The notes: generated by a model not told the origin, from the sequence alone. A DNA stretch of 64,000 nucleotides from a candidate division WOR-3 bacterium (GCA_020349965.1 CP070705.1:545934-609933), one strand, 5' to 3'; positions 3,547 through 57,726 are shown, counted from the first letter of the stretch. Numbers and translations: made by a program.

Positions 3547-3927
3547 ATGGAAACCGCAAATCTATTCGCTGCGTGGGTCGGTATGCTCGTTGGTGCCGTA
3601 GTCGGCGCCTTCAGCGGGCTATTCTTTCATAGGCAAGAGTGGTTTGGTGGTTACGATTCATGGCAACGACGTATGCTGAGGCTTGGACATATTTCTTTCT
3701 TTGGTATCGCTTTCATAAACTTCGCTTTCGTTTTCACGATAATGTACCTCGGTATCAGTAAGCCTTTGTTTTTACCTTCGCTCTTGCTCATAGTCGGTGC
3801 CATCACCATGCCGCTCATTTGTTTTCTGTCTGCATACAAAATGTTCTTCCGTCATCTGTTTTTTATTCCGGTTGTGAGTATCATAATCGCGATGTTCCTC
3901 TTTCTTGTCGGAGGCGTGTTATCATGA
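3547..3927 (+). CDS. Small polytopic membrane protein, translationally coupled to the downstream radical SAM gene
   Basis: Four predicted TM helices. Its stop overlaps the downstream ATG (ATGA). Confidence 0.4.
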   Translation: METANLFAAWVGMLVGAVVGAFSGLFFHRQEWFGGYDSWQRRMLRLGHISFFGIAFINFAFVFTIMYLGISKPLFLPSLLLIVGAITMPLICFLSAYKMFFRHLFFIPVVSIIIAMFLFLVGGVLS

Positions 3928-5252
3928 AGATAGGATTGATTGCCATGAGCGGTATCCGTTGTTGTGACGATGAATTGTTGGAACTCGGGTTGACTTTGCC
4001 TGGCTTTGTCGAACGCAGTAAGGTGATCGCGGCTCTCCCGAGTCTTGGTCTGTTGACGCTGGCCGGTATGACACCTAAGAATCACACAGTCGAGTATATA
4101 GAAGTGCCTGATATAAAGACACTCGATTCGTTGCCTTTGAATTGGGATCTTGTTGGCATCTCGAGTTATTGCGCGCAAATCGATGAGGCCTATGAGCTCG
4201 CCCGGCAGTACAAAGCAGCCGGTGTTCCGGTCGTGCTTGGCGGTCCTCATGTAAGCCATATGCCTGATGAAGCGGCGAAATATTGTGATTCAGTGGTCAT
4301 TGGTGAGGGTGAAGTCACCTGGCTTGATGTTCTGAACGATTGCGAAAGAGGTAAGCTTAAGAGATACTACGGGTCCGTCAAGAACAGCTTTGACCTTTCA
4401 GATGCGCCACTGCCTGCTTTTGAATTACTCGATATCGGCAAGTACAACCGGCTGACTGTTCAGACAAGCCGGGGCTGTACCCATTTATGTGAATTCTGTG
4501 GTAGTTCACCATTGATCACAAACAAATATCGTCAGAAGCCGATAGAGAAGGTGCTCGCAGAGATAGATAAAATAAAGAGCCTGTGGGAAGGCCGCTTCAT
4601 CGAATTCGTGGATGACAACGCGATCGTTGATAAGAAGTATTGGAAGGAATTACTCGCAAAATTGGAGAAAAGAAGGATAAGGTGGTTTGCGGAAACCGAC
4701 CTATCTGTTAGCGAGGACGATGAACTGTTGAGTCTGATGCGTGAAAGCGGCTGTGCACAGGTCTTGATCGGACTCGAGAGTCCTATCGAGGCAGGTCTGA
4801 ATGGGTTGGAGCTCCGCAGTAATTGGAAATATAAGCAATTGCCGAAATACCGGCAAGCGATCAAGAAGATTCAATCCCACGGAATAAGGGTCACAGGTTG
4901 TTTCATCTTCGGCCTCGATGGGCAGACAGCAGACATATTTGACACTGTGGCCGAATTCGCCAAAGAGACAGAACTTTTCGACGTACAGATGACATTTATG
5001 ACGCCATTTGCAGGAACTCCACTCTACGATCGGTTGACGCGGGAAAAGCGGCTCATTCAGGAGAGGGATTGGAAGAAATGCACTCTGTTCGACGTTATGT
5101 TCAAACCGACGGATATGTCGGTGGAAGAATTGAGAAAAGGATTTCGATCCCTGGGCGTGGCGATCTACGGTGAGGATGCTACAAACCGTAGGCGTGAAAC
5201 ATTCAAGAACTATCTCAGGGACGTCGTAAGAAAAAAAGTTGACAGAGATTAG
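3924..5252 (+). CDS. B12-binding (class B) radical SAM protein
   Basis: N-terminal 'MKIGLI..LPSLGLLTLAG' cobalamin-binding-type domain plus a 'CTHLCEFC' CxxxCxxC radical SAM motif. The start was moved to the ATG at 3924, which overlaps the upstream stop; the track ORF begins at 3819. Confidence 0.75.
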   Translation: MKIGLIAMSGIRCCDDELLELGLTLPGFVERSKVIAALPSLGLLTLAGMTPKNHTVEYIEVPDIKTLDSLPLNWDLVGISSYCAQIDEAYELARQYKAAGVPVVLGGPHVSHMPDEAAKYCDSVVIGEGEVTWLDVLNDCERGKLKRYYGSVKNSFDLSDAPLPAFELLDIGKYNRLTVQTSRGCTHLCEFCGSSPLITNKYRQKPIEKVLAEIDKIKSLWEGRFIEFVDDNAIVDKKYWKELLAKLEKRRIRWFAETDLSVSEDDELLSLMRESGCAQVLIGLESPIEAGLNGLELRSNWKYKQLPKYRQAIKKIQSHGIRVTGCFIFGLDGQTADIFDTVAEFAKETELFDVQMTFMTPFAGTPLYDRLTREKRLIQERDWKKCTLFDVMFKPTDMSVEELRKGFRSLGVAIYGEDATNRRRETFKNYLRDVVRKKVDRD

Positions 5253-9539: not shown

Positions 9540-11018
9540 ATGAAAATACTTCTGGTTTATCCGAAAAATCCGGACACATTCTGGTCGTTCAAACATGCGT
9601 TGAGATTCATTTTCAAAAAAGCGACAAATCCGCCGCTTGGATTGCTCACTGCCGCTGCTATGCTGCCGGATGAATGGGAAAAACGACTCATTGATATGAA
9701 TGTAAGCATGTTGAAGGATCGGGATATCGAATGGGCAGATTTTGTCTTTATCAGTGCGGCAACCATTCAGAAAGATTCGGTAAATGAGGTAATTACGCGC
9801 TGTAAGGCAAGAGGTGTAAAGATTGTTGCCGGGGGACCTTTGTTCACAAGTTCTTATGATGAGTATGAGCATGTTGATTATCTCGTGCTCAATGAGGCGG
9901 AAATAACGCTCCCGCAATTTTTGGATGATTTACGTCAAGGAAAACTCAAGCATATTTACACATCCCCCGAGTGGGCAGACCTGAAAAAAACGCCGGTACC
10001 GGATTGGCGCTTGCTCAATATTAGAAAGTATGCGTCCATGAGTATTCAATACTCACGTGGCTGTCCGTTCGATTGCGATTTCTGCGACATCCCCTTGCTC
10101 TACGGGCATAGGCCTCGTATAAAAAACAGGCAACAGATTATCACCGAACTCCAGAATCTTTACGATCGGGGTTGGCGTGGTGTAGTTTTTTTTGTTGACG
10201 ATAATTTTATCGGGAACAAGCGCGGACTGAAGTCAGAAGTTCTGCCTGCCATCGCCGATTGGATGGAGCGTATGAAGTATCCGTTTACGTTTCTCACTCA
10301 AGCGTCGGTTAACCTGGCAGATGATGAAGAATTGATGAACCTGATGGTCAAGGCCAATTTCAATACCGTTTTTGTTGGTATCGAAACGCCGGATGAAGAG
10401 AGTCTTGCTGAATGCGGGAAGCGTCAGAATAAGAATCGCGACCTGGTCGAGTGCGTCAAAAAGATTCAGCGGTTCGGCCTTCAGGTCCAGGGTGGTTTTA
10501 TCGTTGGTTTTGATAGTGATCCGCTGACCATTTTCGAAAGACAAATACGATTCATCCAAAATAGCGGAATTGTTACTGCGATGGTTGGTTTACTCAATGC
10601 CGTGCGCGGTACGAAACTATACCAGCGTCTCAAAGGCGAGAACCGGTTGTTAACGGAAGCCACGGGCGACAATACGGATTGTTCCCTGAATTTCATCCCT
10701 AAGATGCAGTACACGACACTTCTGGAGGGCTACAGGAATATCGTCAGGACGATTTATGCTCCCGATCAATTCTACGCACGGGTGAAGAAATTTCTGGAGA
10801 ATTACAGGCCATTGCATAATAGCCTGGGGCGTCTTAGTATGAGCGAGATCAAGGCGTTCATACTTTCAATATTTGTCCTCGGCATAAAGGAAAAGGAACG
10901 GTTTCATTACTGGCGTCTTTTTCTCTGGAGCGTTTTCAGCCGACCGCGGCTCGCTCCACTTGCCGTGACTTTTGCAATATACGGCTTTCATTTCAGAAAG
11001 GTATTCGAGAAGACCTGA
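9540..11018 (+). CDS. B12-binding radical SAM protein with C-terminal DUF4070
   Basis: 'MKILLVYP..PPLGLLTAAA' B12-binding-like N-terminus, a 'CPFDCDFC' radical SAM motif, and a C-terminal hydrophobic DUF4070-like tail. Confidence 0.75.
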   Translation: MKILLVYPKNPDTFWSFKHALRFIFKKATNPPLGLLTAAAMLPDEWEKRLIDMNVSMLKDRDIEWADFVFISAATIQKDSVNEVITRCKARGVKIVAGGPLFTSSYDEYEHVDYLVLNEAEITLPQFLDDLRQGKLKHIYTSPEWADLKKTPVPDWRLLNIRKYASMSIQYSRGCPFDCDFCDIPLLYGHRPRIKNRQQIITELQNLYDRGWRGVVFFVDDNFIGNKRGLKSEVLPAIADWMERMKYPFTFLTQASVNLADDEELMNLMVKANFNTVFVGIETPDEESLAECGKRQNKNRDLVECVKKIQRFGLQVQGGFIVGFDSDPLTIFERQIRFIQNSGIVTAMVGLLNAVRGTKLYQRLKGENRLLTEATGDNTDCSLNFIPKMQYTTLLEGYRNIVRTIYAPDQFYARVKKFLENYRPLHNSLGRLSMSEIKAFILSIFVLGIKEKERFHYWRLFLWSVFSRPRLAPLAVTFAIYGFHFRKVFEKT

Positions 11019-42128: not shown

Positions 42129-42734
42129 ATGAGAGACCGTATGTTTTTCTTTCTTGTCTTGATTGCATGTTTGTCGCATGTCAGTTGGAGGTGCCGCGCC
42201 GGTAAAATTCCATATATCCTCGTGGAAACAGATGCCGGGGATATTGTGATCGAGGTCTATGCAAAGAGATCTCCTGTTACGGCGGTTAATTTTCTGCGGT
42301 ACGTAGACGAAGGGCGCTATAAGGAAGCGAAGTTCTACAGGGTCGTCAGGGTAGACAACCAACCTCGCAATGAGATAAAAATAGAGGTCGTCCAGGGCGG
42401 GATCGGCTTCGTGGAGAGTGAATTGAGGCTCCCGCCGATCGTTCATGAGACGACCGAACAGACCGGCATTTTGCACCTCGACGGTGTGGTATCGATGGCC
42501 CGGGCCGAACCCGGAACGGCGAGCTCAGAATTCTTCATTTGCATCAATGATCAGCCGGAGCTGGATTACGGGGGCAGACGTAATCCGGACGGGCAGGGTT
42601 TCGCCGCATTCGGACGCGTGGTGCACGGCATGGACGTTGTCCGTAAGATACAGACAGAGGAGGCAGACGGGCAGATGCTGCGCACACCGGTCAGGATATC
42701 CTCGATAAGAAGGGTTATACGCGCATCGAAGTGA
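42129..42734 (+). CDS. Secreted cyclophilin-type peptidyl-prolyl isomerase
   Basis: 'VIEVYAKRSPVTAVNFLRYV...FYRVV' and 'FFICINDQPELD' cyclophilin signatures. An AAGGGAG RBS precedes the ATG at 42129. Confidence 0.8.
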   Translation: MRDRMFFFLVLIACLSHVSWRCRAGKIPYILVETDAGDIVIEVYAKRSPVTAVNFLRYVDEGRYKEAKFYRVVRVDNQPRNEIKIEVVQGGIGFVESELRLPPIVHETTEQTGILHLDGVVSMARAEPGTASSEFFICINDQPELDYGGRRNPDGQGFAAFGRVVHGMDVVRKIQTEEADGQMLRTPVRISSIRRVIRASK

Positions 42735-42778
42735 TGCGCTCGTCAGAGTATGAAGTCAAGAAATGAGGGGAATATCAC

Positions 42779-43195
42779 ATGAAGAGTCATAGAAGGGAAT
42801 TGTGGTTCAACACACAGCACCGGGTAGATCTGGTGAACATCACGTCGCAGGTCGAAGAAGCCTTACGTGAAAGCGGGATAAGAGAGGGGCTATGCCTCGT
42901 CAATGCGATGCACATTACGGCCAGCGTCTTCATTAATGACGACGAAGAGGGTTTGCACGAAGATTTCTTAAAATGGCTGGAACATAATATCCCCCACGAT
43001 CCCAAGCTGTACAGGCACAATCTGACTGGTGAGATGAATGCGGATGCCCATATTAAAAGGCAATTCATGGGACGTGAGGTTGTCGTCGCCGTAACCCGAG
43101 GCAGGTTGGACTTTGGACCGTGGGAGCAGATCTTCTACGGTGAATTTGATGGCCGGCGTAAGAAGAGGGTTCTGATAAAGATCGTAGGCGAGTAA
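42779..43195 (+). CDS. YjbQ/UPF0047-family protein (secondary thiamine-phosphate synthase-like)
   Basis: '[14 protein letters not shown]...[20 protein letters not shown]...[14 protein letters not shown]' matches the YjbQ consensus. Confidence 0.75.
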
Positions 43196-43290
43196 CATTC
43201 GGTACTTGAGGGATGCGAGTATACCACAGTGAGCCCCAGCGGCCTGAGTCGGCGTACTTGCAATCCGATCGAATTTGAGTAGTATTAACC

Positions 43291-44778
43291 ATGGCAAAAG
43301 ATAATGATTCGACCAACCCCAGACCAGTTGTAAGGTTCCTCACTGACAAGACGATCGAAAAGATTGTCTCTGAGGCTCGCGAAATACTCTGTAGACTCGG
43401 AGTGGAGATAAACAACGATGAGATCCTTTCGATGCTGCATGATCATGGCGCGACCGTGGATAGAAAGAAGAGCCTTGTTCTCTTTAAAGACGGTATCATC
43501 GATCGAGCCTTGAAGACGACGCCTCGTTCGTTTAAGCTATATGACGTCTTAGGCAACCAAACCCACGATTTTTCTGGTTATGGCGTGCATTTCACGCCGG
43601 GCTCGGCAGCGTTGAATATACTGGACGGAGTGACGCAGCAGATCAGGAAGCCTGTGACCGCTGATTATGTCAAATATGCGATGATCGTAAGTCAGCTCAG
43701 AAATATTGCATCGCAGTCGACCGCCTTCATTCCGGCTGACGTCCATGAAAGAATTTCTGACAGTTACCGTCTTTACTTGAGTCTGCTTTATTGCGAGAAA
43801 CCGGTGGTGACCGGTGCATTTACAATCGAGGCGGTCGGGGTGATGAAAGAGTTGCAGCTTGCGGTGCGCGGCAGTGAAGAAAAACTGGCTCAACAACCGC
43901 TCACAGTGTTCTCGTGTTGTCCGACATCGCCGCTTAAGTGGAGCGATGTAACATCACAGAATGTCGTTGACTGCGCCCGCGCATCGATACCAGTAGAATT
44001 CATTTCAATGCCGTTATCCGGTTTTATGGCACCGGTGACGCTTATAGGCACGCTCATACAGCATACAGCTGAGACACTGAGCGGTATAGTGATAAGTCAG
44101 CTTGTGAATCCGGGTGCGCCTATACTCTATGGTGGGTCGCCGGCGATATTCGATATCAGGTATGAGACGACACCGATGGGAGCCATTGGGACGCAGATGA
44201 TAGATTGTGCGTATAACGAAGTCGGCAAGTATCTGGGTATGCCCACGCAGGCATATATATCGCTGAGCGATGCCAAACAACTCGATGCCCAGGCTGGTCT
44301 CGAATCATCGATGGGTGCGACCCTTGCCGCACTGGCCGGGATCAACAACATATCTGGACCTGGAATGCTTGATTTTGAGAGCTGCCAGAGTCTCGAAAAA
44401 CTCGTACTCGACAACGAAATATGCGGAATGGTTTTGCGGTTGGTTGAGGGGATTCAGCCGAAAGAAGATTTTCCGTCGTTGCCGCGGTTTGAGGAATTGC
44501 TTGCTGAAAAGCATCTTCTTATTTCGGAACATACGCAGAAATATCTAAAGGAAGAACTCTGTTTGCCAGGACCGGTCATAGACAGGGCGAACCGGACGAG
44601 GTGGCAGGAAGAGGGTGGATTGACACTTCTTGAGCGAGCCAACCGTGAAATAGACAAATTGATGGGTAGTTACGTTCCCTCGCGGCTTTCCGGAAGCGTG
44701 CAGGCCGATCTAAGAAAGATCATGTTACGGGAAGCACATGCTTGTGGTATGACCAACCTACCGGATATTTCCATATGA
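43291..44778 (+). CDS. MttB-superfamily (trimethylamine-type, non-Pyl) substrate:corrinoid methyltransferase
   Basis: About 495 aa. The N-terminus 'LTDKTIEKIVSEAREILCRLGVEINNDEILSMLHDHGATVD...LKTTPRSFKLYD' matches the conserved MttB-family start. The ORF has no in-frame internal stop, so it is not a pyrrolysine-type gene. Confidence 0.7.
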   Translation: MAKDNDSTNPRPVVRFLTDKTIEKIVSEAREILCRLGVEINNDEILSMLHDHGATVDRKKSLVLFKDGIIDRALKTTPRSFKLYDVLGNQTHDFSGYGVHFTPGSAALNILDGVTQQIRKPVTADYVKYAMIVSQLRNIASQSTAFIPADVHERISDSYRLYLSLLYCEKPVVTGAFTIEAVGVMKELQLAVRGSEEKLAQQPLTVFSCCPTSPLKWSDVTSQNVVDCARASIPVEFISMPLSGFMAPVTLIGTLIQHTAETLSGIVISQLVNPGAPILYGGSPAIFDIRYETTPMGAIGTQMIDCAYNEVGKYLGMPTQAYISLSDAKQLDAQAGLESSMGATLAALAGINNISGPGMLDFESCQSLEKLVLDNEICGMVLRLVEGIQPKEDFPSLPRFEELLAEKHLLISEHTQKYLKEELCLPGPVIDRANRTRWQEEGGLTLLERANREIDKLMGSYVPSRLSGSVQADLRKIMLREAHACGMTNLPDISI

Positions 44779-45518
44779 GGAATGTGCTTAAGATCTCGGT
44801 AAAAGATGTCATTCCCGGGCAGAAGGAATCACTCGCCCTACAGGGAATTTCGTCTTTGAAAGAACCCTCTGATAGAATAGTGAAACTTTATCAAGGGGCC
44901 AGAGAATCATTCGAGGCAGTTTGTCACCCGGTCGGCGTGGTCGCCGATATCACGAAAGAGGATTTTGTACGCGTCTACAGAGGAGACGGGCGCAACGAAG
45001 CATCGACACCGGTTGGGGAGATATTCGAGAAGGCGGATCGCCTTGCTCTTTTCGCTGTGACCGTGGGTCATGATGTGCATGAGAGGATAAATGAACTTTT
45101 CGGGCAGAAGGATTTTGCGCTTGGCAGTATGTTGGATTCCGTTGCTTCTGCCGGAGTCGAAAAGGCGGCCGATGTCGTTGAAGCACGTTTCTCGAGATAT
45201 TCGAGGAAAAGAAGAAGTCGTAGTGAACCTATAGTGACAATGCGGTATAGCCCAGGTTACTGCGGGTGGCACGTAAGTGGACAGAAGAAACTGTTCGAGT
45301 TCCTAAAACCGGGGGATATCGGAATCACGCTGCGCGAGAGTTTTCTCATGGAACCATTGAAATCAGTGTCGGGAGTCTTGATACAAGGGCATGCTGAGAT
45401 ACACAAGGTTGAAGATAAGTATCCATTCTGTATTCAATGTGATACTCATTCGTGTCGGGAAAGGTCGTTGAGATTAGATCGCCATGTGACATCAAGAAGT
45501 GCTAATGAAGGGGAGTGA
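44775..45518 (+). CDS. Standalone MetH activation (AdoMet-binding, Met_synt_B12-like) domain protein
   Basis: 'MRYSPGYCGWHVSGQKKLFEFL...ITLRESFLMEPLKSVSGVLIQ' aligns with E. coli MetH '[22 protein letters not shown]...KLTESFAMWPGASVSGWYF'. ATGA overlap with the mttB-like stop. Confidence 0.65.
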   Translation: MRNVLKISVKDVIPGQKESLALQGISSLKEPSDRIVKLYQGARESFEAVCHPVGVVADITKEDFVRVYRGDGRNEASTPVGEIFEKADRLALFAVTVGHDVHERINELFGQKDFALGSMLDSVASAGVEKAADVVEARFSRYSRKRRSRSEPIVTMRYSPGYCGWHVSGQKKLFEFLKPGDIGITLRESFLMEPLKSVSGVLIQGHAEIHKVEDKYPFCIQCDTHSCRERSLRLDRHVTSRSANEGE

Positions 45519-45519
45519 T

Positions 45520-46158
45520 ATGGGCATTTTAGAGGACATCTCATCAGCGTTACAGCGCGGGAATGGAAAAGACGTAGGCAAACTGGTAGAAGAGGCTTTG
45601 GCAGGCCGCAGAGAACCTAAAGAAATACTCGATAATGGTTTGATCGCGGGTATGAATGTAATCGGGCAAAAATACAAAGATCATGAAATATTTCTACCTG
45701 AAGTGTTGCTTGCGGCCAAAGCGATGTATGCGGGCATGGACATATTGAAGCCGCTATTCCTGAGCGGTAAGATGCCGACTTTGGGGCGTGTAGTTATTGG
45801 TACTGTACAGGGAGATATCCACGATATCGGCAAGAACTTGGTTTGCATAATGCTGCGTGGAGCAGGCTTTGAGGTGATCGATCTGGGTAAGGACGTTGCA
45901 CCGAAGAAGTTCGTTGACACTGCAGTAAATGAAGGTGCGCGTGTCATCGGCATGTCGGCGCTGCTGACGACTACCATGCCGGTTATGAAGAACGTCGTTG
46001 AACTGCTTAAAAAAGATGGGCTTCAGTCGAAGATAAAGACGATCATCGGCGGCGCGCCTGTCTCGGATGAATTCGCCAGGCACATAGGCGCCGATGCGTA
46101 CGGCTACGACAGCATGCAGGCCGTTGAGCGGATAAAGAGATTCTTCTCTGAAGCGTAA
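45520..46158 (+). CDS. Corrinoid (cobalamin-binding) protein
   Basis: B12-binding cap helices followed by the 'GDIHDIGKN' DxHxxG motif, 'MSALLTTT' and 'IIGGA'. A GGGGAG RBS is present. Confidence 0.8.
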   Translation: MGILEDISSALQRGNGKDVGKLVEEALAGRREPKEILDNGLIAGMNVIGQKYKDHEIFLPEVLLAAKAMYAGMDILKPLFLSGKMPTLGRVVIGTVQGDIHDIGKNLVCIMLRGAGFEVIDLGKDVAPKKFVDTAVNEGARVIGMSALLTTTMPVMKNVVELLKKDGLQSKIKTIIGGAPVSDEFARHIGADAYGYDSMQAVERIKRFFSEA

Positions 46159-46159
46159 A

Positions 46160-47047
46160 ATGGAACCATTCTTGAAACGGTTGGCCAACGGTGAAGTACT
46201 CATTGCCGACGGTGCCATCGGCACGATGCTTATGGAGCGCGGTCTCGAACCAGGACGACCGCCTGAGTCATTCAACTTGACGCACCCGGACGTGCTTGAA
46301 GGTGTTGCGCGTGAATACCTGGAATCGGGCGCAGATATTATCCAGACGAATACTTTCGGCGGATCGCGCCTCAAACTCCAAGCGTGCGGGCTCGGGGACA
46401 GGGTCTTGGAGATAAATCGCAACGCAGTTCTTGCTGTGAGAAGGGCAGTTGGTGACTCTGCGTATGTATATGGAAGTTGCGGCCCAACCGGACAATTTCT
46501 CGAACCGTACGGGCAGGTTAGCGTTGATGAGATGTACGCCGTGTTCAAAGAACAGATCAGCGCACTCTTTGGAGCGGGCGTCGACGTTATATGCGTAGAG
46601 ACCATGAGTGATCTGAATGAAGCGACCTGCGCAATAAAGGCGGCAAAGAACTCTGCGCAGGTTCCGGTGATGGCGACGATGACCTTCGACCATACACCTA
46701 AAGGGTTCTATACAATTATGGGGGTGACGATCAAGGAAGCGGTGAAGGGCTTGGAGGAGGCCGGAGCTGATGTTATCGGATCGAATTGTGGGAATGGAAT
46801 TGATAGGATGGTTGCCATCGCGCGTGAATTCAGGCAGTATACAGAACTTCCGGTGGCGATCCAGGCGAATGCAGGTATACCTGAACTGGTCGGTGATCGA
46901 GCCGTCTACCCTGAAACTCCGGATTTCATGGCCGAGCGGGCAGGAGAGCTGCTCTCATTGGGGGTTTCGGTCATTGGGGGCTGCTGCGGGACTACGCCGG
47001 CGCATATTAGAGCGTTGAGGACGGCAGTCGATTCCCTCAGGCGATAG
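46160..47047 (+). CDS. Standalone homocysteine S-methyltransferase (MetH Hcy-binding / BHMT-type, PF02574-like) domain protein
   Basis: 'IADGAIGTMLMERGL...ADIIQTNTFGG', with zinc-ligand Cys at 'GSNCGNG' and 'GGCCGTTPAHI'; the 63-residue spacing matches MetH C247/C310/C311. It starts 1 nt after the corrinoid gene. Confidence 0.75.
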   Translation: MEPFLKRLANGEVLIADGAIGTMLMERGLEPGRPPESFNLTHPDVLEGVAREYLESGADIIQTNTFGGSRLKLQACGLGDRVLEINRNAVLAVRRAVGDSAYVYGSCGPTGQFLEPYGQVSVDEMYAVFKEQISALFGAGVDVICVETMSDLNEATCAIKAAKNSAQVPVMATMTFDHTPKGFYTIMGVTIKEAVKGLEEAGADVIGSNCGNGIDRMVAIAREFRQYTELPVAIQANAGIPELVGDRAVYPETPDFMAERAGELLSLGVSVIGGCCGTTPAHIRALRTAVDSLRR

Positions 47048-47134
47048 GATTCTATGCGAAAGTTTAAAAGTTTATGCCTGTCCCCGGGGTGTAACCATAT
47101 CCGGGTAATCATCGTTTAGTATGTACAAGGAGGC

Positions 47135-47518
47135 ATGATGGATTGGGCTGGAAGTATTGCACTGATCTTTAATTTCTTCGTGGTCGGGGCCATCATCTTC
47201 GGAGTTATCTGGTTCCAATACATGAAGAGGAAGAAGCATTACGACACGCTACTCAAGGCGCTCGAGATGTCAAAGAACCCCGACCAGATCAAAGAATTGT
47301 TCGCAACGCAGAAGGTTCCAAAGCAGAAGAACGGTAAGGGTCTGGTCAAAAGCGGCATCGTGACCATCGGTATCGGCGCGGGTCTGGCATTTATGAGTCC
47401 TTTTCTACCTGCAGAGGCCATGGGAGGGCTGCTTGCATCTGGGGTTCTCATTGCCGTGCTTGGACTCTCGCTCGTGCTTGCCTACGTGTTGACCAGGAAG
47501 AAAGAAAAAGCTGAATAA
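47135..47518 (+). CDS. Hypothetical membrane protein
   Basis: An N-terminal TM helix, a charged linker and two C-terminal TM helices. It sits upstream of the ECF sigma operon. Confidence 0.35.
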   Translation: MMDWAGSIALIFNFFVVGAIIFGVIWFQYMKRKKHYDTLLKALEMSKNPDQIKELFATQKVPKQKNGKGLVKSGIVTIGIGAGLAFMSPFLPAEAMGGLLASGVLIAVLGLSLVLAYVLTRKKEKAE

Positions 47519-47521
47519 TCT

Positions 47522-48085
47522 TTGGAATCGAAGATCAATGAGATTGGGTGTTTGATCAAGAGCGCCCAGGATGGTGATGAGCAGGCGATGACAAAGCTCA
47601 TCACCATTCATAAAGGATTGGTGTTTACGATCGTGCTACGTATGACCAATGATTATGACTTGAGTCAGGATCTCACACAGGATACCTTTATTAAGGTCTT
47701 CATGAACATCAAAAGAGTGAAGAGTGCTGAGCACTTAAGGCCGTGGATTTGCGCTATTGCACGTAACGTCGTGCGCGACCACTTCCGGAAAGCGAAGAGA
47801 ACGCAGGCGATTTCATTTGAGAGCGTCAAGGATTTCCATGTGAAAGGAGAATCGAATATCGATTCCACAAAGCGGCGAATGGTGATCCAGGATGCATTAG
47901 CAAAACTGGCCGAAAGAGACCGCATGATTCTAACACTCACTTACTATGATGGATTGAGTCTTGGTGAGGTGGCGCAGGCATTGAAGATGTCAGAGAATGC
48001 TGTAAAAGTGGGCGTTCATCGGGCCCGCAAGAGACTGAGGAAATACTTGGAAGGGTATGAGCATGAACTCTTGTCCATACGTTGA
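47522..48085 (+). CDS. ECF (sigma-70 family group 4) RNA polymerase sigma factor
   Basis: Region 2 'DLTQDTFIKVFMNI' and region 4 'LTYYDGLSLGEVAQALKMSENAVKVGVHRARKRLR'. Confidence 0.8.
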   Translation: MESKINEIGCLIKSAQDGDEQAMTKLITIHKGLVFTIVLRMTNDYDLSQDLTQDTFIKVFMNIKRVKSAEHLRPWICAIARNVVRDHFRKAKRTQAISFESVKDFHVKGESNIDSTKRRMVIQDALAKLAERDRMILTLTYYDGLSLGEVAQALKMSENAVKVGVHRARKRLRKYLEGYEHELLSIR

Positions 48086-51299: not shown

Positions 51300-52354
51300 G
51301 GGGTCAGATCTTGACTATTGACAATTTCCTGATGCCCTTCTCGGCTGCTTCGTAAAGCACTGCGATTTTTTGTTTCTTGGCGATTCTACTTTGTAGGCGC
51401 GAGCGTAGTTTGCTCACTGCAGAATAGCTGATGCCTCCCAGCATGTCGCCAATTTGCGACTGCGTCAAATCTGAATACTTGTATAACAAATCTGCAGCTA
51501 TACTCCTCGCTTCGCTGTTGACATAGCAAGCAAGAATCTCTTTCTCTGTGACGCTACAGGCTTTTGCAGTCTGTTCTATAACGCGGTGGGGATTGACGCG
51601 CTGGACCACCAGCTCGCGGTACGAAGGTTGCTCTTGCTTTGATCCCTCCTCAATACACTCTGCCCGGATTTTCTTTACGAAGCTCTCATCGCCAAGAAGC
51701 AGACCGTACTTTACGTCCATGAAAGGATTTTTTACTTCCTTCTTGATGGCGTCGATAACAAATTGCGAATAGGATTTACGACCTCCAGTCATGGATAGTG
51801 TTAGGTCGTAGTATACGAATGCTACTGCATTTTTCGCTCTCATGTATCCAGGGAGACTACTCCACCGGTATGATGAAAGATGTCGCAATCGACGCTCATA
51901 TCCTGAGGCTGAAAACTGCGGGGTGCGTAATGCATTCAAATGAATATACCTGGAGACCTCTAGTAGGTAATTATCGGCATCTATTACTATTGCCTTATAC
52001 CGACCTTGGAATAGATGACCATACCTGTCATGACGATGATTGAACCATCCCACATACGTAACATTGAGTGTGCGTACAAACTCGGCGCAGTTCGGTTTGA
52101 GTGTTTGGATGAGAAGGTGGTAATGATTGTCCATTAGAATATATGCATGAATCCTAACAGAATATGTTTTGGCCGAATCGGCGAGCAGAGAGACAAATCT
52201 ACTTCGATCATCGTCGGCATAGAAAATTCTCTGTCTGCTATTGCCCCGACACATCAAATGGTAGTGCGCACCGGGAAATTGGATACGCAGTGGGCGTGCC
52301 ATGAAATCAGTCTAGTTGCAGTGCAAGAATTGTCAATGGTCAAGATCTGACCCC
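51300..52354. mobile_element. IS-like element: Y1 (IS200/RAYT-like) transposase gene bounded by 27-bp imperfect terminal inverted repeats
   Basis: Left end GGGGTCAGATCTTGACTATTGACAATT (51300-51326). The reverse complement of the right end (52328-52354) is GGGGTCAGATCTTGACCATTGACAATT, a 26/27 match. No target-site duplication detected. Confidence 0.55.
51304..52302 (-). CDS. IS200-like / REP-associated Y1 tyrosine transposase with C-terminal DnaA-C-like HTH domain
   Basis: 'AHYHLMCRG...IHAYILMDNHYHLLIQT' HuH motif and a '...SRYIHLNALR' catalytic Tyr context. The C-terminal 'LTQSQIGDMLGGISYSAVSKLRSRL' is a DnaA domain IV-like HTH. Confidence 0.6.
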   Translation of the reverse strand: MARPLRIQFPGAHYHLMCRGNSRQRIFYADDDRSRFVSLLADSAKTYSVRIHAYILMDNHYHLLIQTLKPNCAEFVRTLNVTYVGWFNHRHDRYGHLFQGRYKAIVIDADNYLLEVSRYIHLNALRTPQFSASGYERRLRHLSSYRWSSLPGYMRAKNAVAFVYYDLTLSMTGGRKSYSQFVIDAIKKEVKNPFMDVKYGLLLGDESFVKKIRAECIEEGSKQEQPSYRELVVQRVNPHRVIEQTAKACSVTEKEILACYVNSEARSIAADLLYKYSDLTQSQIGDMLGGISYSAVSKLRSRLQSRIAKKQKIAVLYEAAEKGIRKLSIVKI

Positions 52355-52433: not shown

Positions 52434-53525
52434 ATGAAGTGGTTTTCATTGGCCACCATTCTCGCGGTCTTCACCATTAGCATGTGCAAGAGCGAGGGTG
52501 CGGCTGAAGATAAGGGGATGGGTATGACGAAAAACAGCGGCAGTTATGAGAAGGCAACATTCGCAGGCGGGTGTTTCTGGTGTATGGAACCACCCTTTGA
52601 GAATTTGGATGGTGTGATAGAGGTAGTTCCGGGATATACCGGCGGTCAGACAGTAGATCCTACCTACGGGCAGGTCTCAAGTGGCACGACCGGTCATCTT
52701 GAGGCGGTTCAGGTAACCTATGACCCTTCTAAGATTGACTATACCGGAATGCTAGAGGTGTTTTGGATGCAGATAGATCCAACGGACGGCAGTGGCCAGT
52801 TCGTCGATCGTGGTTCTCAGTACAGCACGGCAATATTCTATCATAGCGAGGAACAGAAGAGGATCGCAGAAGAGTCAAAGTTGCGGCTCCAGAAGTCAGG
52901 GAGGTTCAGCAAGCCGATCGTTACTCAGATAAGGCCGTTCACCGAATTTTACGAAGCAGAGGATTATCACAAGGATTTCTACAAGAAGAGCCCTGTTCGA
53001 TACAAGACATATAAACTCTTCTCGGGGCGGGAAGCGTTTCAGAAGAAGAACTGGAGTGATGCGGCAGGGGAAGAAACTGAAAGTCGGTATAAGAAGCCTT
53101 CGGAGAAGGAGATTCGCGCGAAATTGACGCCAGAACAATACAGTGTTACACAGCAGTGCGGAACTGAACCTCCTTTTCAGAATGAATACTGGAATAACAA
53201 GAGAGAAGGTATCTACGTCGACGTAGTCTCTGGCGAGCCGCTCTTCAGTTCGAAAGACAAGTTCGATTCAGGCAGTGGCTGGCCGAGTTTCTTCCGTCCG
53301 ATAGATGAGATGAACATCGTTGAAAACGTGGATTCCAGTCACGGAATGGTGCGAACCGAGGTCCGCAGCGGAATCGGTGATTCCCATCTCGGGCATGTGT
53401 TCAATGATGGCCCTGAACCAACCGGCCTGCGGTATTGCATTAACTCTGCCTCTTTACGCTTCATACCAAAAGAGGATCTTGATAAGGAAGGGTATGGAGC
53501 ATACAAGATTCTCTTTGAGGAATAA
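52434..53525 (+). CDS. msrAB: Bifunctional peptide methionine sulfoxide reductase MsrA-MsrB (lipoprotein)
   Basis: MsrA '[11 protein letters not shown]', an MsrB zinc site, and '[11 protein letters not shown]' catalytic Cys. Signal peptide with Cys. Confidence 0.85.
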
Positions 53526-56682: not shown

Positions 56683-57726
56683 ATGAAGACGGTCGATTTA
56701 CGGAGTGATACTGTGACATTGCCGACAGAAGAAATGCTCGAGGCAATGTCTGGTGCGCCGCTGGGCGATGATGTCTTTGGAGAAGATCCAACGATCAATG
56801 AGTTGCAACACATCGCCGCCAAATTAACCGGAAAAGATGCGGCGCTGCTCGTGAGCAGCGGAACGATGGGTAATCTGGTGTGCGTATTGACTCATTGCCG
56901 CCGGGGTGAGGAAGTTGTACTTGGCGACAAATCGCACATGTTCCTCAACGAATGCGGGAGTATGTCGAGTGTTGGCGGTGTGCATCCGCACACGGTCTTC
57001 AACCAGCCAGACGGCACCATATCGCTTGGAGATATTGAAGGCGCGATTCGAGGTGTTAACGATCACTGGCCGCGCACGCGGCTGGTCTGCCTCGAGAACA
57101 CGCACAACCGCTGTTATGGTGCTCCTCTGACTCCTGAATACATGGCATCTGTCAAGGATCTCGCAGGGCAGCGCAGTCTCAAGGTCCACCTCGACGGTGC
57201 GCGTATATTCAATGCCGTCGTTGCGTTGGATGTCGATATGAAGGACTTAACAAAGCATGTTGATTCACTATCATTCTGTCTATCAAAGGGCCTGTCGGCT
57301 CCTGTCGGATCAGTCGTTTGCGGTTCACATGAGTTCATTGCGGAAGCCCGGCGAAACCGCAAATTACTGGGCGGCGGCATGCGCCAGGCCGGTATAATCG
57401 CGGCACCTGGTATTGTGGCCCTCGGACGGATGGTCGACCGCATTGCCGATGACCACAAGAATGCCCGGCGCCTGGCCAAAGGCATTGCGCAGATTCCTGG
57501 GTTGTCGATAGATCTAAGTACTGTGTACACGAACATAGTGTATTTCGATGTCGACATTAAAAGGATCACGACCGACGCATTGAAGGCAATGCTCGACAGA
57601 AAAGGGATCAGGGCTTTGCCGACCGGTCCGACCCGTTTCCGAATGGTTACCCACTACGGAATTACCGAGGAGGATATTGACCTCACCATATCAGTGCTCA
57701 ACGATGTTATGAAAGGAGTAGGATGA
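56683..57726 (+). CDS. ltaE: Low-specificity L-threonine aldolase
   Basis: 'DLRSDTVTLPTEEMLEAM...GDDVFGEDPTINELQ' N-terminus and a PLP-fold size of 347 aa. Confidence 0.8.
   Translation: MKTVDLRSDTVTLPTEEMLEAMSGAPLGDDVFGEDPTINELQHIAAKLTGKDAALLVSSGTMGNLVCVLTHCRRGEEVVLGDKSHMFLNECGSMSSVGGVHPHTVFNQPDGTISLGDIEGAIRGVNDHWPRTRLVCLENTHNRCYGAPLTPEYMASVKDLAGQRSLKVHLDGARIFNAVVALDVDMKDLTKHVDSLSFCLSKGLSAPVGSVVCGSHEFIAEARRNRKLLGGGMRQAGIIAAPGIVALGRMVDRIADDHKNARRLAKGIAQIPGLSIDLSTVYTNIVYFDVDIKRITTDALKAMLDRKGIRALPTGPTRFRMVTHYGITEEDIDLTISVLNDVMKGVG

Follow-up and report, generated by a model that had tools for sequence, protein, structure and literature searches.

The tying of quaternary-amine demethylation to methionine synthesis through one corrinoid protein has been described in Ruegeria, where genetic work showed that MtgC serves both a betaine demethylase of the MttB family and a split methionine synthase (Mausz et al., 2025; PMC12478193). 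In the same work, the "Bhmt" homologs of S. meliloti and Ruegeria were reinterpreted as MtgE, a stand-alone homocysteine (Hcy) module. Williams et al. (2022; PMC9324843) reported a cluster of four components in metagenome-assembled genomes (MAGs) of Ca. Electryoneota and in "diverse bacteria," and hypothesized that methionine is made there by a novel, corrinoid-dependent route from an unknown methyl donor; the MttB homolog of that cluster was assigned to an uncharacterised clade apart from MttB and MtgB. Here we analyse a stretch of 64,000 nucleotides from a candidate division WOR-3 bacterium (GCA_020349965.1, CP070705.1:545934-609933), which we will refer to, at its full length, as "the window." It carries the same four components, co-located as genes g1 to g4: an MttB-superfamily member, a stand-alone activation protein of the type found in the methionine synthase MetH, a corrinoid protein and a stand-alone homocysteine S-methyltransferase.

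On the evidence set out below, we consider it reasonably probable that the cassette encodes a self-contained, four-protein, cobalamin-dependent system which would convert homocysteine into methionine using a methyl donor other than methyl-tetrahydrofolate. A previous reading of the window, made without database searches (hereafter the sequence-only reading), had taken the locus for a split, MetH-like methionine synthase in which an MttB-superfamily enzyme stands in for the module that binds methyl-tetrahydrofolate. That proposal is a rediscovery of the hypothesis published by Williams et al. (2022); its view of the architecture proved largely right, and the donor that it named wrong or at least unsupported.

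The four proteins and the nature of the donor

The first protein, g1, aligns with the PF06253 (MTTB) profile along its full length (profile positions 25-495 of 500; 2.7e-72; 243.9 bits over a cutoff of 25), which places it in the MttB superfamily; its matches in the PDB are 7XCL, 9YCE, 2QNE and 4YYC. Its identity amounts to 28.8% with M. barkeri MttB (7XCL) and 27.6% with D. hafniense MtgB (9YCE), two enzymes that are 30.7% identical to each other, and it scores alike against both of them (173 and 172 bits, respectively). The model of pyrrolysine (Pyl)-type MttB, TIGR02369, yields 363.7 bits vs. a cutoff of 525, the open reading frame (ORF) is uninterrupted and free of in-frame UAG codons, and the position of pyrrolysine is occupied by Leu325 (codon CUG), so that the earlier claim that g1 is not of the Pyl type holds. 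A match to PYLIS_3, the pyrrolysine insertion sequence of mttB, lies inside the gene (44263-44362, plus strand; 44.3 bits, gathering score 38), begins exactly at codon 325, and is the sole match at the Rfam gathering level in the window. As a functional recoding element it was rejected, since the UAG of the model aligns to the CUG of Leu325, and it is best explained by coding-sequence homology with mttB.

The binding of glycine betaine by MtgB has been resolved by mutagenesis and a ligand-bound structure: Y97 and F356 make cation-pi contacts, and R312 and H348 hold the carboxylate (Picking et al., 2026; PMC13080624; the chain numbering of 9YCE is offset by 2 from the numbering used there). R312 is conserved in all the characterised members of the family, all of them acting on acidic quaternary amines (PMC13080624). 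In g1, the corresponding residues are S105, Q320, S355 and E363, mapped concordantly by a HMMER alignment and by a MAFFT alignment with 75 orthologs; none of the four betaine-binding residues is kept, and the substitutes are themselves near-invariant among the orthologs (S105 in 74/75, Q320 in 75/75, S355 in 70/75 and E363 in 74/75).

These replacements bear on the glycine-betaine-like donor of the sequence-only reading. Were g1 an MtgB-like enzyme, the cassette would be a B12-dependent betaine-homocysteine methyltransferase, producing dimethylglycine and methionine from glycine betaine and homocysteine. The equal similarity to MtgB and MttB would fit such a role, as would the Leu shared with MtgB at the pyrrolysine position and the use of glycine betaine by MtgBCDE, the closest genetically studied system. 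However, little more than a quarter of the residues are identical between g1 and MtgB, and the residues exchanged (Y97 to S, R312 to Q, H348 to S and F356 to E) are needed for the activity of MtgB; we regard this role as very unlikely, and the betaine-like donor as a part of the sequence-only reading that is not supported.

Broadly, non-pyrrolysine members of the MttB family act on permanently charged quaternary amines, and the donor used by g1 is probably positively charged, e.g., a quaternary amine. Given that the Arg and His for the carboxylate, and the two cation-pi aromatics, are replaced (by Gln, Ser, Ser and Glu), with the gain of Glu363, we argue that the donor probably lacks a carboxylate, being neither glycine betaine nor another acidic betaine, a view that we hold loosely. 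Conservation reaches 95% or more at 181 of the 495 positions of g1 among orthologs of many phyla, and the alignments point to a clade distinct from both MttB and MtgB, with a different and strongly constrained pocket.

The corrinoid protein g3 comprises the cap domain PF02607 (4e-22) and the Rossmann domain PF02310 (5e-28), with D99-x-H101-x-x-G104, S146-x-L148 and G177-G178 all invariant and aligned with the DxHxxG, SxL and GG motifs of E. coli MetH. The DxHxxG sequence predicts cobalamin binding of the His-on (base-off) type. Among NCBIfam models, the scores fall in the order MtgC_2 (207 bits), pyl_corrinoid (204), MtbC (192) and metH (135), by which g3 is of the methylamine/MtgC type rather than of the MetH type. 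The sequence-only reading had counted three of the four MetH modules as present; this stands for the Hcy and activation modules, which are of the MetH type, but not for g3, with its 204-207 vs. 135 bits. In this sense, the system looks like a chimera, in which a front end of the MttB/MttC type is joined to MetH-type homocysteine and activation modules.

The assignment of g4 as a homocysteine S-methyltransferase follows from a match to the whole PF02574 profile (1-283/283; 5.3e-71; 240 bits) together with its three zinc-binding cysteines. C210, C275 and C276 align with C247, C310 and C311 of E. coli MetH and show no variation among 63 orthologs, so the zinc-binding cysteines expected from the sequence-only reading are in place; D17-G18 and E147-T148 are also invariant, and we take these two motifs, by analogy with the MetH and betaine-homocysteine methyltransferase (BHMT) structures, to bind the amino-acid part of homocysteine. 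Among more specific models, g4 scores best with the Hcy domain of the YitJ-type bifunctional enzyme (289 bits), followed by PRK07534, a "BHMT"/MtgE-like model (240), and MetH (175). Zinc-thiolate chemistry is generic across PF02574 proteins, and MttB-linked mercury methylation has been the subject of speculation in Zixibacteria (PMC12484752), so one could conceive of g4 methylating some other acceptor (a small mercaptan, sulfide or a metal(loid)) for methyl disposal or detoxification. Against it stand the complete Hcy S-methyltransferase profile, the invariant D-G and E-T motifs, the Cys triad shared with MetH, and the lack of any cassette-linked hgcAB or similar gene in the locus flanks; we deem it extremely unlikely.

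The activation protein g2 matches PF02965 (Met_synt_B12) with 7.3e-13 and 49 bits (cutoff 25), and a phmmer search against the PDB retrieved 1J6R, T. maritima TM0269, with E 1.2e-6, its RYSPGY aligned to RISPGY; the R-x-x-P-G-Y motif of the S-adenosylmethionine (SAM) site is kept, and R157-Y-S-P-G-Y162 is invariant. An AlphaFold2 model built from an alignment of g2 relatives (pLDDT 85.8, pTM 0.84) has 1J6R as its top Foldseek match (E 1.3e-12, TMt 0.83), and the further matches are exclusively MetH reactivation domains (E. coli, T. thermophilus and human, probability 1.0). Profile score, RxxxGY motif and predicted fold agree in placing g2 in the TM0269/MetH activation family, and the model indicates that it carries the MetH activation fold. 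TM0269 itself, in work attributed to Huang et al. from 2007 and cited in PMC7857596, is reportedly a separate protein required to reactivate the short MetH of T. maritima.

Besides this fold, g2 has four invariant cysteines: C163, which extends the SAM-site motif to PGYC, and a C-terminal C219-x2-C222-x4-C227. In the g2 family, which comprises 207 clusters at E ≤ 1e-30, a census of the 150 best representatives from a library clustered at 50% identity found CxxCxxxxC in 148 and PGYC in 140. E. coli MetH lacks residues equivalent to the three C-terminal cysteines (MAFFT alignment), and TM0269 has a Gly at the position of C163 (in its aligned segment, residues 98-202). The pattern suggests a distinct PF02965 subfamily defined by the four cysteines, which would form an undescribed metal site; this may hold a structural zinc ion or an Fe-S cluster, and a cluster, if present, could relay the reactivating electron, a role that would resemble that of the [4Fe-4S] cluster in the corrinoid iron-sulfur protein. 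Comparison of the C-terminus with the B-box zinc finger 2YVR gives a non-significant E of 0.94, a mere hint of zinc binding. Members of the g2 family are named "hypothetical protein" everywhere in annotation.

Arrangement, spread and surroundings of the cassette

The genes are co-directional and close-packed, as the sequence-only reading described them (Table 1), and all four of its domain assignments are matched by Pfam above the curated thresholds. The TGA stop of g1 and the ATG of g2 share an ATGA overlap, a single T separates g2 from the ATG of g3, and a single A separates g3 from the ATG of g4. For g2 and g3, the mechanical list of ORFs has longer versions with TTG and GTG starts; the ATG starts were preferred because they match the orthologs and the ribosome-binding site (GGGGAG, 5 nt upstream of the g3 ATG). 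With this overlap and the two 1-nt gaps, g1 to g4 are predicted to be translationally coupled. Nothing relevant was found as a riboswitch or RNA leader upstream of g1, either at the Rfam gathering level in the whole window or in a permissive scan of 43000-43400, and promoter and terminator matches in 42700-47600 were no commoner than in shuffled sequence.

Table 1. Genes of the cassette and other annotated genes of the window, with positions counted from the first nucleotide of the window.
Feature	Description	Coordinates	Strand	Profile
g1	MttB-superfamily substrate:corrinoid methyltransferase, non-pyrrolysine, 495 aa	43291..44778	+	PF06253
g2	Stand-alone MetH-type (TM0269-like) activation / SAM-binding protein, 247 aa	44775..45518	+	PF02965
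g3	Corrinoid (cobalamin-binding) protein, cap + Rossmann domains, 212 aa	45520..46158	+	PF02607 + PF02310
g4	Stand-alone zinc-type homocysteine S-methyltransferase domain protein, 295 aa	46160..47047	+	PF02574
Radical SAM protein	B12-binding	3819..5252	+	PF02310 + PF04055 + DUF4070
Radical SAM protein	B12-binding	9540..11018	+	PF02310 + PF04055 + DUF4070
Transposase	IS200/IS605-type Y1	51304..52302	-	
MsrA-MsrB	Fused methionine sulfoxide reductase	52434..53525	+	
Aldolase	GntG-family, pyridoxal phosphate-dependent	56683..57726	+	GntG model, 494 bits

A search of genomes, one per species, with an alignment of g2 relatives found at least 566 stretches that encode a g2 relative, distributed over a dozen or more phyla and all from MAGs. 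Complete chromosomes with the cassette include CP070686.1, CP070744.1, CP070666.1, CP070813.1, CP070839.1 and CP070685.1. For gene order, the four window proteins were searched by tblastn against the best 80 of these at least 566 stretches, each count being taken over the loci with room for the gene in question. The lineages with a g2 relative include WOR-3, TA06, Cloacimonadota, Ignavibacteria, Stahlbacteria, Zixibacteria, Planctomycetota/Phycisphaerae, Gemmatimonadota, Acidobacteriota/Aminicenantes, Eisenbacteria, Fischerbacteria, Armatimonadota and Bacteroidota, together with one Clostridia MAG. Order and strand g1-g2-g3-g4 are kept in loci of WOR-3, TA06, Cloacimonadota, Ignavibacteria, Zixibacteria, Planctomycetota, Gemmatimonadota and Acidobacteriota, among others: g1 lies directly upstream of g2 in 74/74 testable loci, and g3 and g4 follow downstream in 73/74 and 60/63, respectively, at median identities to the window proteins of 71% (g1), 48% (g2), 63% (g3) and 60% (g4). 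Minor departures are a 1.8-kb insertion that separates g2 and g3 in one locus (L055) and a g4 match divided over two high-scoring segment pairs in another (L060).

The conservation that the sequence-only reading had proposed to check is therefore extensive; the four genes are inherited as a unit, and the arrangement is far from chance. The genes flanking the cassette vary by lineage when the neighbours are compared between loci, and when all flank ORFs of about 80 loci were clustered, no family recurred in over eight of them, such families reflecting lineage-specific synteny; no transporter, kinase or one-carbon enzyme that might point to the donor was conserved. A conserved order within differing flanks indicates a self-contained unit that is mobile or strongly selected.

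No match to PF00809 was found by Pfam in g1 to g4, and the cassette is accordingly not a canonical MetH (TIGR02082). No pterin-binding module came up in a tblastn search with residues 354-649 of E. coli MetH, either in the window or in the flanks of 84 loci (about 8 kb on each side), nor is there one in the Pfam annotation of the neighbours, which bears out the missing methyl-tetrahydrofolate module of the sequence-only reading. MetH, MetE, MTHFR and RamA are absent among the ORFs of the window scanned with Pfam, i.e., beyond the cassette, 20 further ORFs including every one of at least 400 aa; the window likewise has no RamA-sized ORF with a matching domain. The pterin-binding MtgD and RamA/DUF1638 were found neither in the cassette nor in the scanned window ORFs or the locus flanks, and in this the locus differs from the MtgBCDE system of Ruegeria.

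As for the other genes of the window, the two B12-binding radical SAM proteins indicate an organism with other cobalamin-dependent enzymes. The Y1 transposase and MsrA-MsrB genes downstream of the cassette are syntenic in another WOR-3 contig (L001). The GntG-family aldolase, about 10 kb downstream, also matches low-specificity threonine aldolase; a protein of the same length (347 aa) and the same Pfam family is encoded two genes upstream of the cassette in a TA06 locus (L002, 5537-6580). The presence of a GntG-family gene near the cassette in both loci may be a coincidence.

Proposed methyl flow and its alternatives

We infer the following direction of methyl flow. As methyltransferase 1 (MT1), g1 would bind the methylated compound and pass one methyl group to the Co(I) corrinoid of g3; g4, as the zinc-activated, homocysteine-binding methyltransferase 2 (MT2), would then transfer the methyl of CH3-Co(III)-g3 to homocysteine, yielding methionine and Co(I). 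Upon accidental oxidation to Co(II), g2 would dock on g3 and restore CH3-Co(III) by reductive methylation with SAM, as do MetH and TM0268/TM0269, with no recourse to an ATP-dependent RamA activase.

Several observations weigh against this scheme. No electron donor for the reactivation is encoded in the cassette, and no cassette-linked transporter or donor-producing enzyme is conserved in the flanks of about 80 loci. The g1 residues were mapped on alignments with about 28% identity; HMMER and MAFFT nonetheless concur, and the motifs on either side are conserved. Full-text literature searches, within the library covered, found no biochemical study of an MttB-homocysteine cassette, in agreement with the impression of the sequence-only reading that the combination had not been characterised; the cluster and the hypothesis had nevertheless already been published in 2022 (PMC9324843). 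The MAGs of Williams et al. also encode a full-length MetH (PMC9324843), so that the cassette is not needed there as the sole methionine synthase, and where MetH is also present its role could be supplementary or catabolic. Finally, three loci lack g4 beside g3, or both g3 and g4. In the first (L032), g1-g2-g3 are followed by a membrane protein gene in the place of g4. In the second, from a Fischerbacteria MAG (L058, 3483-6206; MFGW01000086.1), g1-g2-g3 precede the genes for a solute-binding protein of an ABC transporter and an ATPase. In the third, from an Aminicenantes MAG (L048, 5540-10125; WVZO01000704.1), g1-g2 are followed by pylSc (TIGR02367, 346 bits) and pylB (TIGR03910, 474 bits).

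The last two of these loci deserve a comment on their own account. Only in the Fischerbacteria locus was a transporter seen to adjoin the cassette directly, a single case which could hint at the donor. The g1 ortholog of the Aminicenantes locus has Leu at the pyrrolysine position and is the sole ortholog in which Val replaces Glu363; here there is a hint of some connection, evolutionary or functional, between the g1 clade and pyrrolysine systems.

The loci devoid of g4 and the co-occurrence with MetH are what one would expect if the cassette were a catabolic demethylase, in which g1, g3 and g2 strip a growth substrate, the methyl group goes mainly to tetrahydrofolate via an unlinked pterin methyltransferase (MtgA/MtgD-like), and g4 is a side branch that draws on the same corrinoid for methionine, in line with a proposal made for MtgBCDE of Ruegeria. 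Such a scheme would also follow the logic of Ruegeria and Phaeobacter, where one corrinoid protein is used for both routes. Yet g4 is adjacent in nearly all of the testable loci and apparently translationally coupled in the window, no pterin methyltransferase, MTHFR or one-carbon oxidation gene is linked at the 84 loci, and the characterised systems of this kind employ RamA instead of a SAM-consuming activation domain. We consider catabolic use as the main function unlikely.

The wide phyletic spread and the lack of a linked transporter could, on the other hand, be read in terms of a housekeeping methionine synthase, whose MttB-like TIM barrel has replaced the pterin module and which takes its methyl group from a donor ubiquitous inside cells, e.g., a methylated folate or pterin. 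The conservation of g1 (61-80% identity across phyla, with more than a third of its positions near-invariant) exceeds that of g2 to g4, and its pocket has no betaine-type residues and has gained a Gln and a Glu, which could suit such a donor. This is distinctly unlikely in our view, as all the characterised MttB-family enzymes demethylate a methylamine or a quaternary amine, and the MAGs of Williams et al. (2022; PMC9324843) have a full-length, folate-dependent MetH.

Returning to the favoured scheme, in which a methyl group from a non-folate donor reaches homocysteine via g3, a bolder version of it can be drawn. In it, the cassette would be a B12-dependent methionine synthase that needs no folate and is widespread, with at least 566 genome loci in a dozen or more phyla, most of these uncultured; g1 would represent a third functional clade, acting on a non-acidic donor new to the superfamily; and the four-Cys center of g2, possibly an Fe-S cluster, would feed the reactivation electron, making the system independent of both RamA and flavodoxin. 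We put this forward tentatively, as a possibility that we rather doubt in its entirety.

Should a folate-independent route be confirmed, members of WOR-3, Zixibacteria, Cloacimonadota, Ignavibacteria, Planctomycetota, Gemmatimonadota and Acidobacteriota would make methionine without methyl-folate, from another methylated compound. The hosts of the cassette comprise many uncultured bacteria from sediments and wetlands. In such communities it would constitute a sink for methylated compounds, which are substrates of methanogens and precursors of trimethylamine (TMA), and a further cause of B12 demand; one more route would also join the short list of methionine synthases. At present, genes of the g1 type go under the name "trimethylamine methyltransferase" and are taken to indicate TMA use, and even mercury methylation: MttB homologs in MAGs of Zixibacteria and others have recently been treated as TMA-specific, possibly feeding HgcA mercury methylation (PMC12484752, 2025). 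Since pyrrolysine is missing, use of TMA by g1 is doubtful, and a TMA-specific annotation of non-Pyl homologs like it may be unsafe. As a self-contained cassette of four genes, the hypothesis is open to direct testing.

Comparison with known systems

The published proposal closest to ours, that of Williams et al. (2022), is a bioinformatic one, set out in one paragraph of a MAG paper and without an analysis of pocket residues, cysteine motifs or quantitative synteny. What is new here with respect to it is the negative test of a betaine donor, the synteny counts across phyla, the methylamine-type assignment of g3, the confirmation of g2 by structure prediction, and the cysteine motif of g2.

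Among the experimentally studied systems, the MtgBCDE proteins of Ruegeria pomeroyi and the split MetH of Phaeobacter inhibens share with the cassette an MttB-family enzyme, a stand-alone corrinoid protein and a stand-alone Hcy module, with demethylation and methionine synthesis meeting at the one corrinoid protein. In Ruegeria, however, the pterin-binding MtgD is essential, the genes are scattered, reactivation is assigned to RamA and DUF1638, and the donor is glycine betaine; the cassette is a tight operon without a pterin module, with an activation protein of the MetH/TM0269 type and with replacements at the betaine-binding residues.

The MetH of E. coli and the TM0268 + TM0269 pair resemble the cassette in having an Hcy module with a Cys3 zinc site, a DxHxxG module and a SAM-dependent activation module. 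Unlike MetH, the cassette has all its modules as separate proteins, an unrelated TIM barrel of the MttB family in the place of the pterin module, and a g3 apparently of the methylamine type, and its g2 bears the additional C-terminal CxxCxxxxC absent from E. coli MetH in the alignment.

An MT1 of the MttB superfamily without pyrrolysine, a corrinoid protein and an MT2 are also the components of MtgB/MtgC/MtgA in D. hafniense and of the MtpB, MtcB, MtyB and MthB systems in E. limosum. There, the acceptor is tetrahydrofolate, reached via a pterin-binding MT2, the activase is the ATP-dependent RamA, and the substrates are acidic quaternary amines bound by the conserved Arg (R312), which g1 does not have. 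The Methanosarcina system MttB/MttC/MtbA is approached in two respects, as g1 is best conserved vs. MttB around the active site and g3 belongs to the "pyl_corrinoid" type by score; its acceptor module, in contrast, is a coenzyme M methyltransferase of the uroporphyrinogen decarboxylase type, whereas that of the cassette is a homocysteine methyltransferase, and g1 lacks pyrrolysine.

Lastly, BHMT offers an analogous net chemistry (a methylated onium compound and homocysteine giving methionine) and shares the PF02574 family with g4. BHMT is nonetheless a single, cobalamin-independent protein which binds betaine itself, whereas in the cassette the transfer would proceed via a corrinoid protein, with the donor bound by an MttB-family enzyme. 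The cassette differs from every system so far characterised by experiment, although its cluster type is already in the literature.

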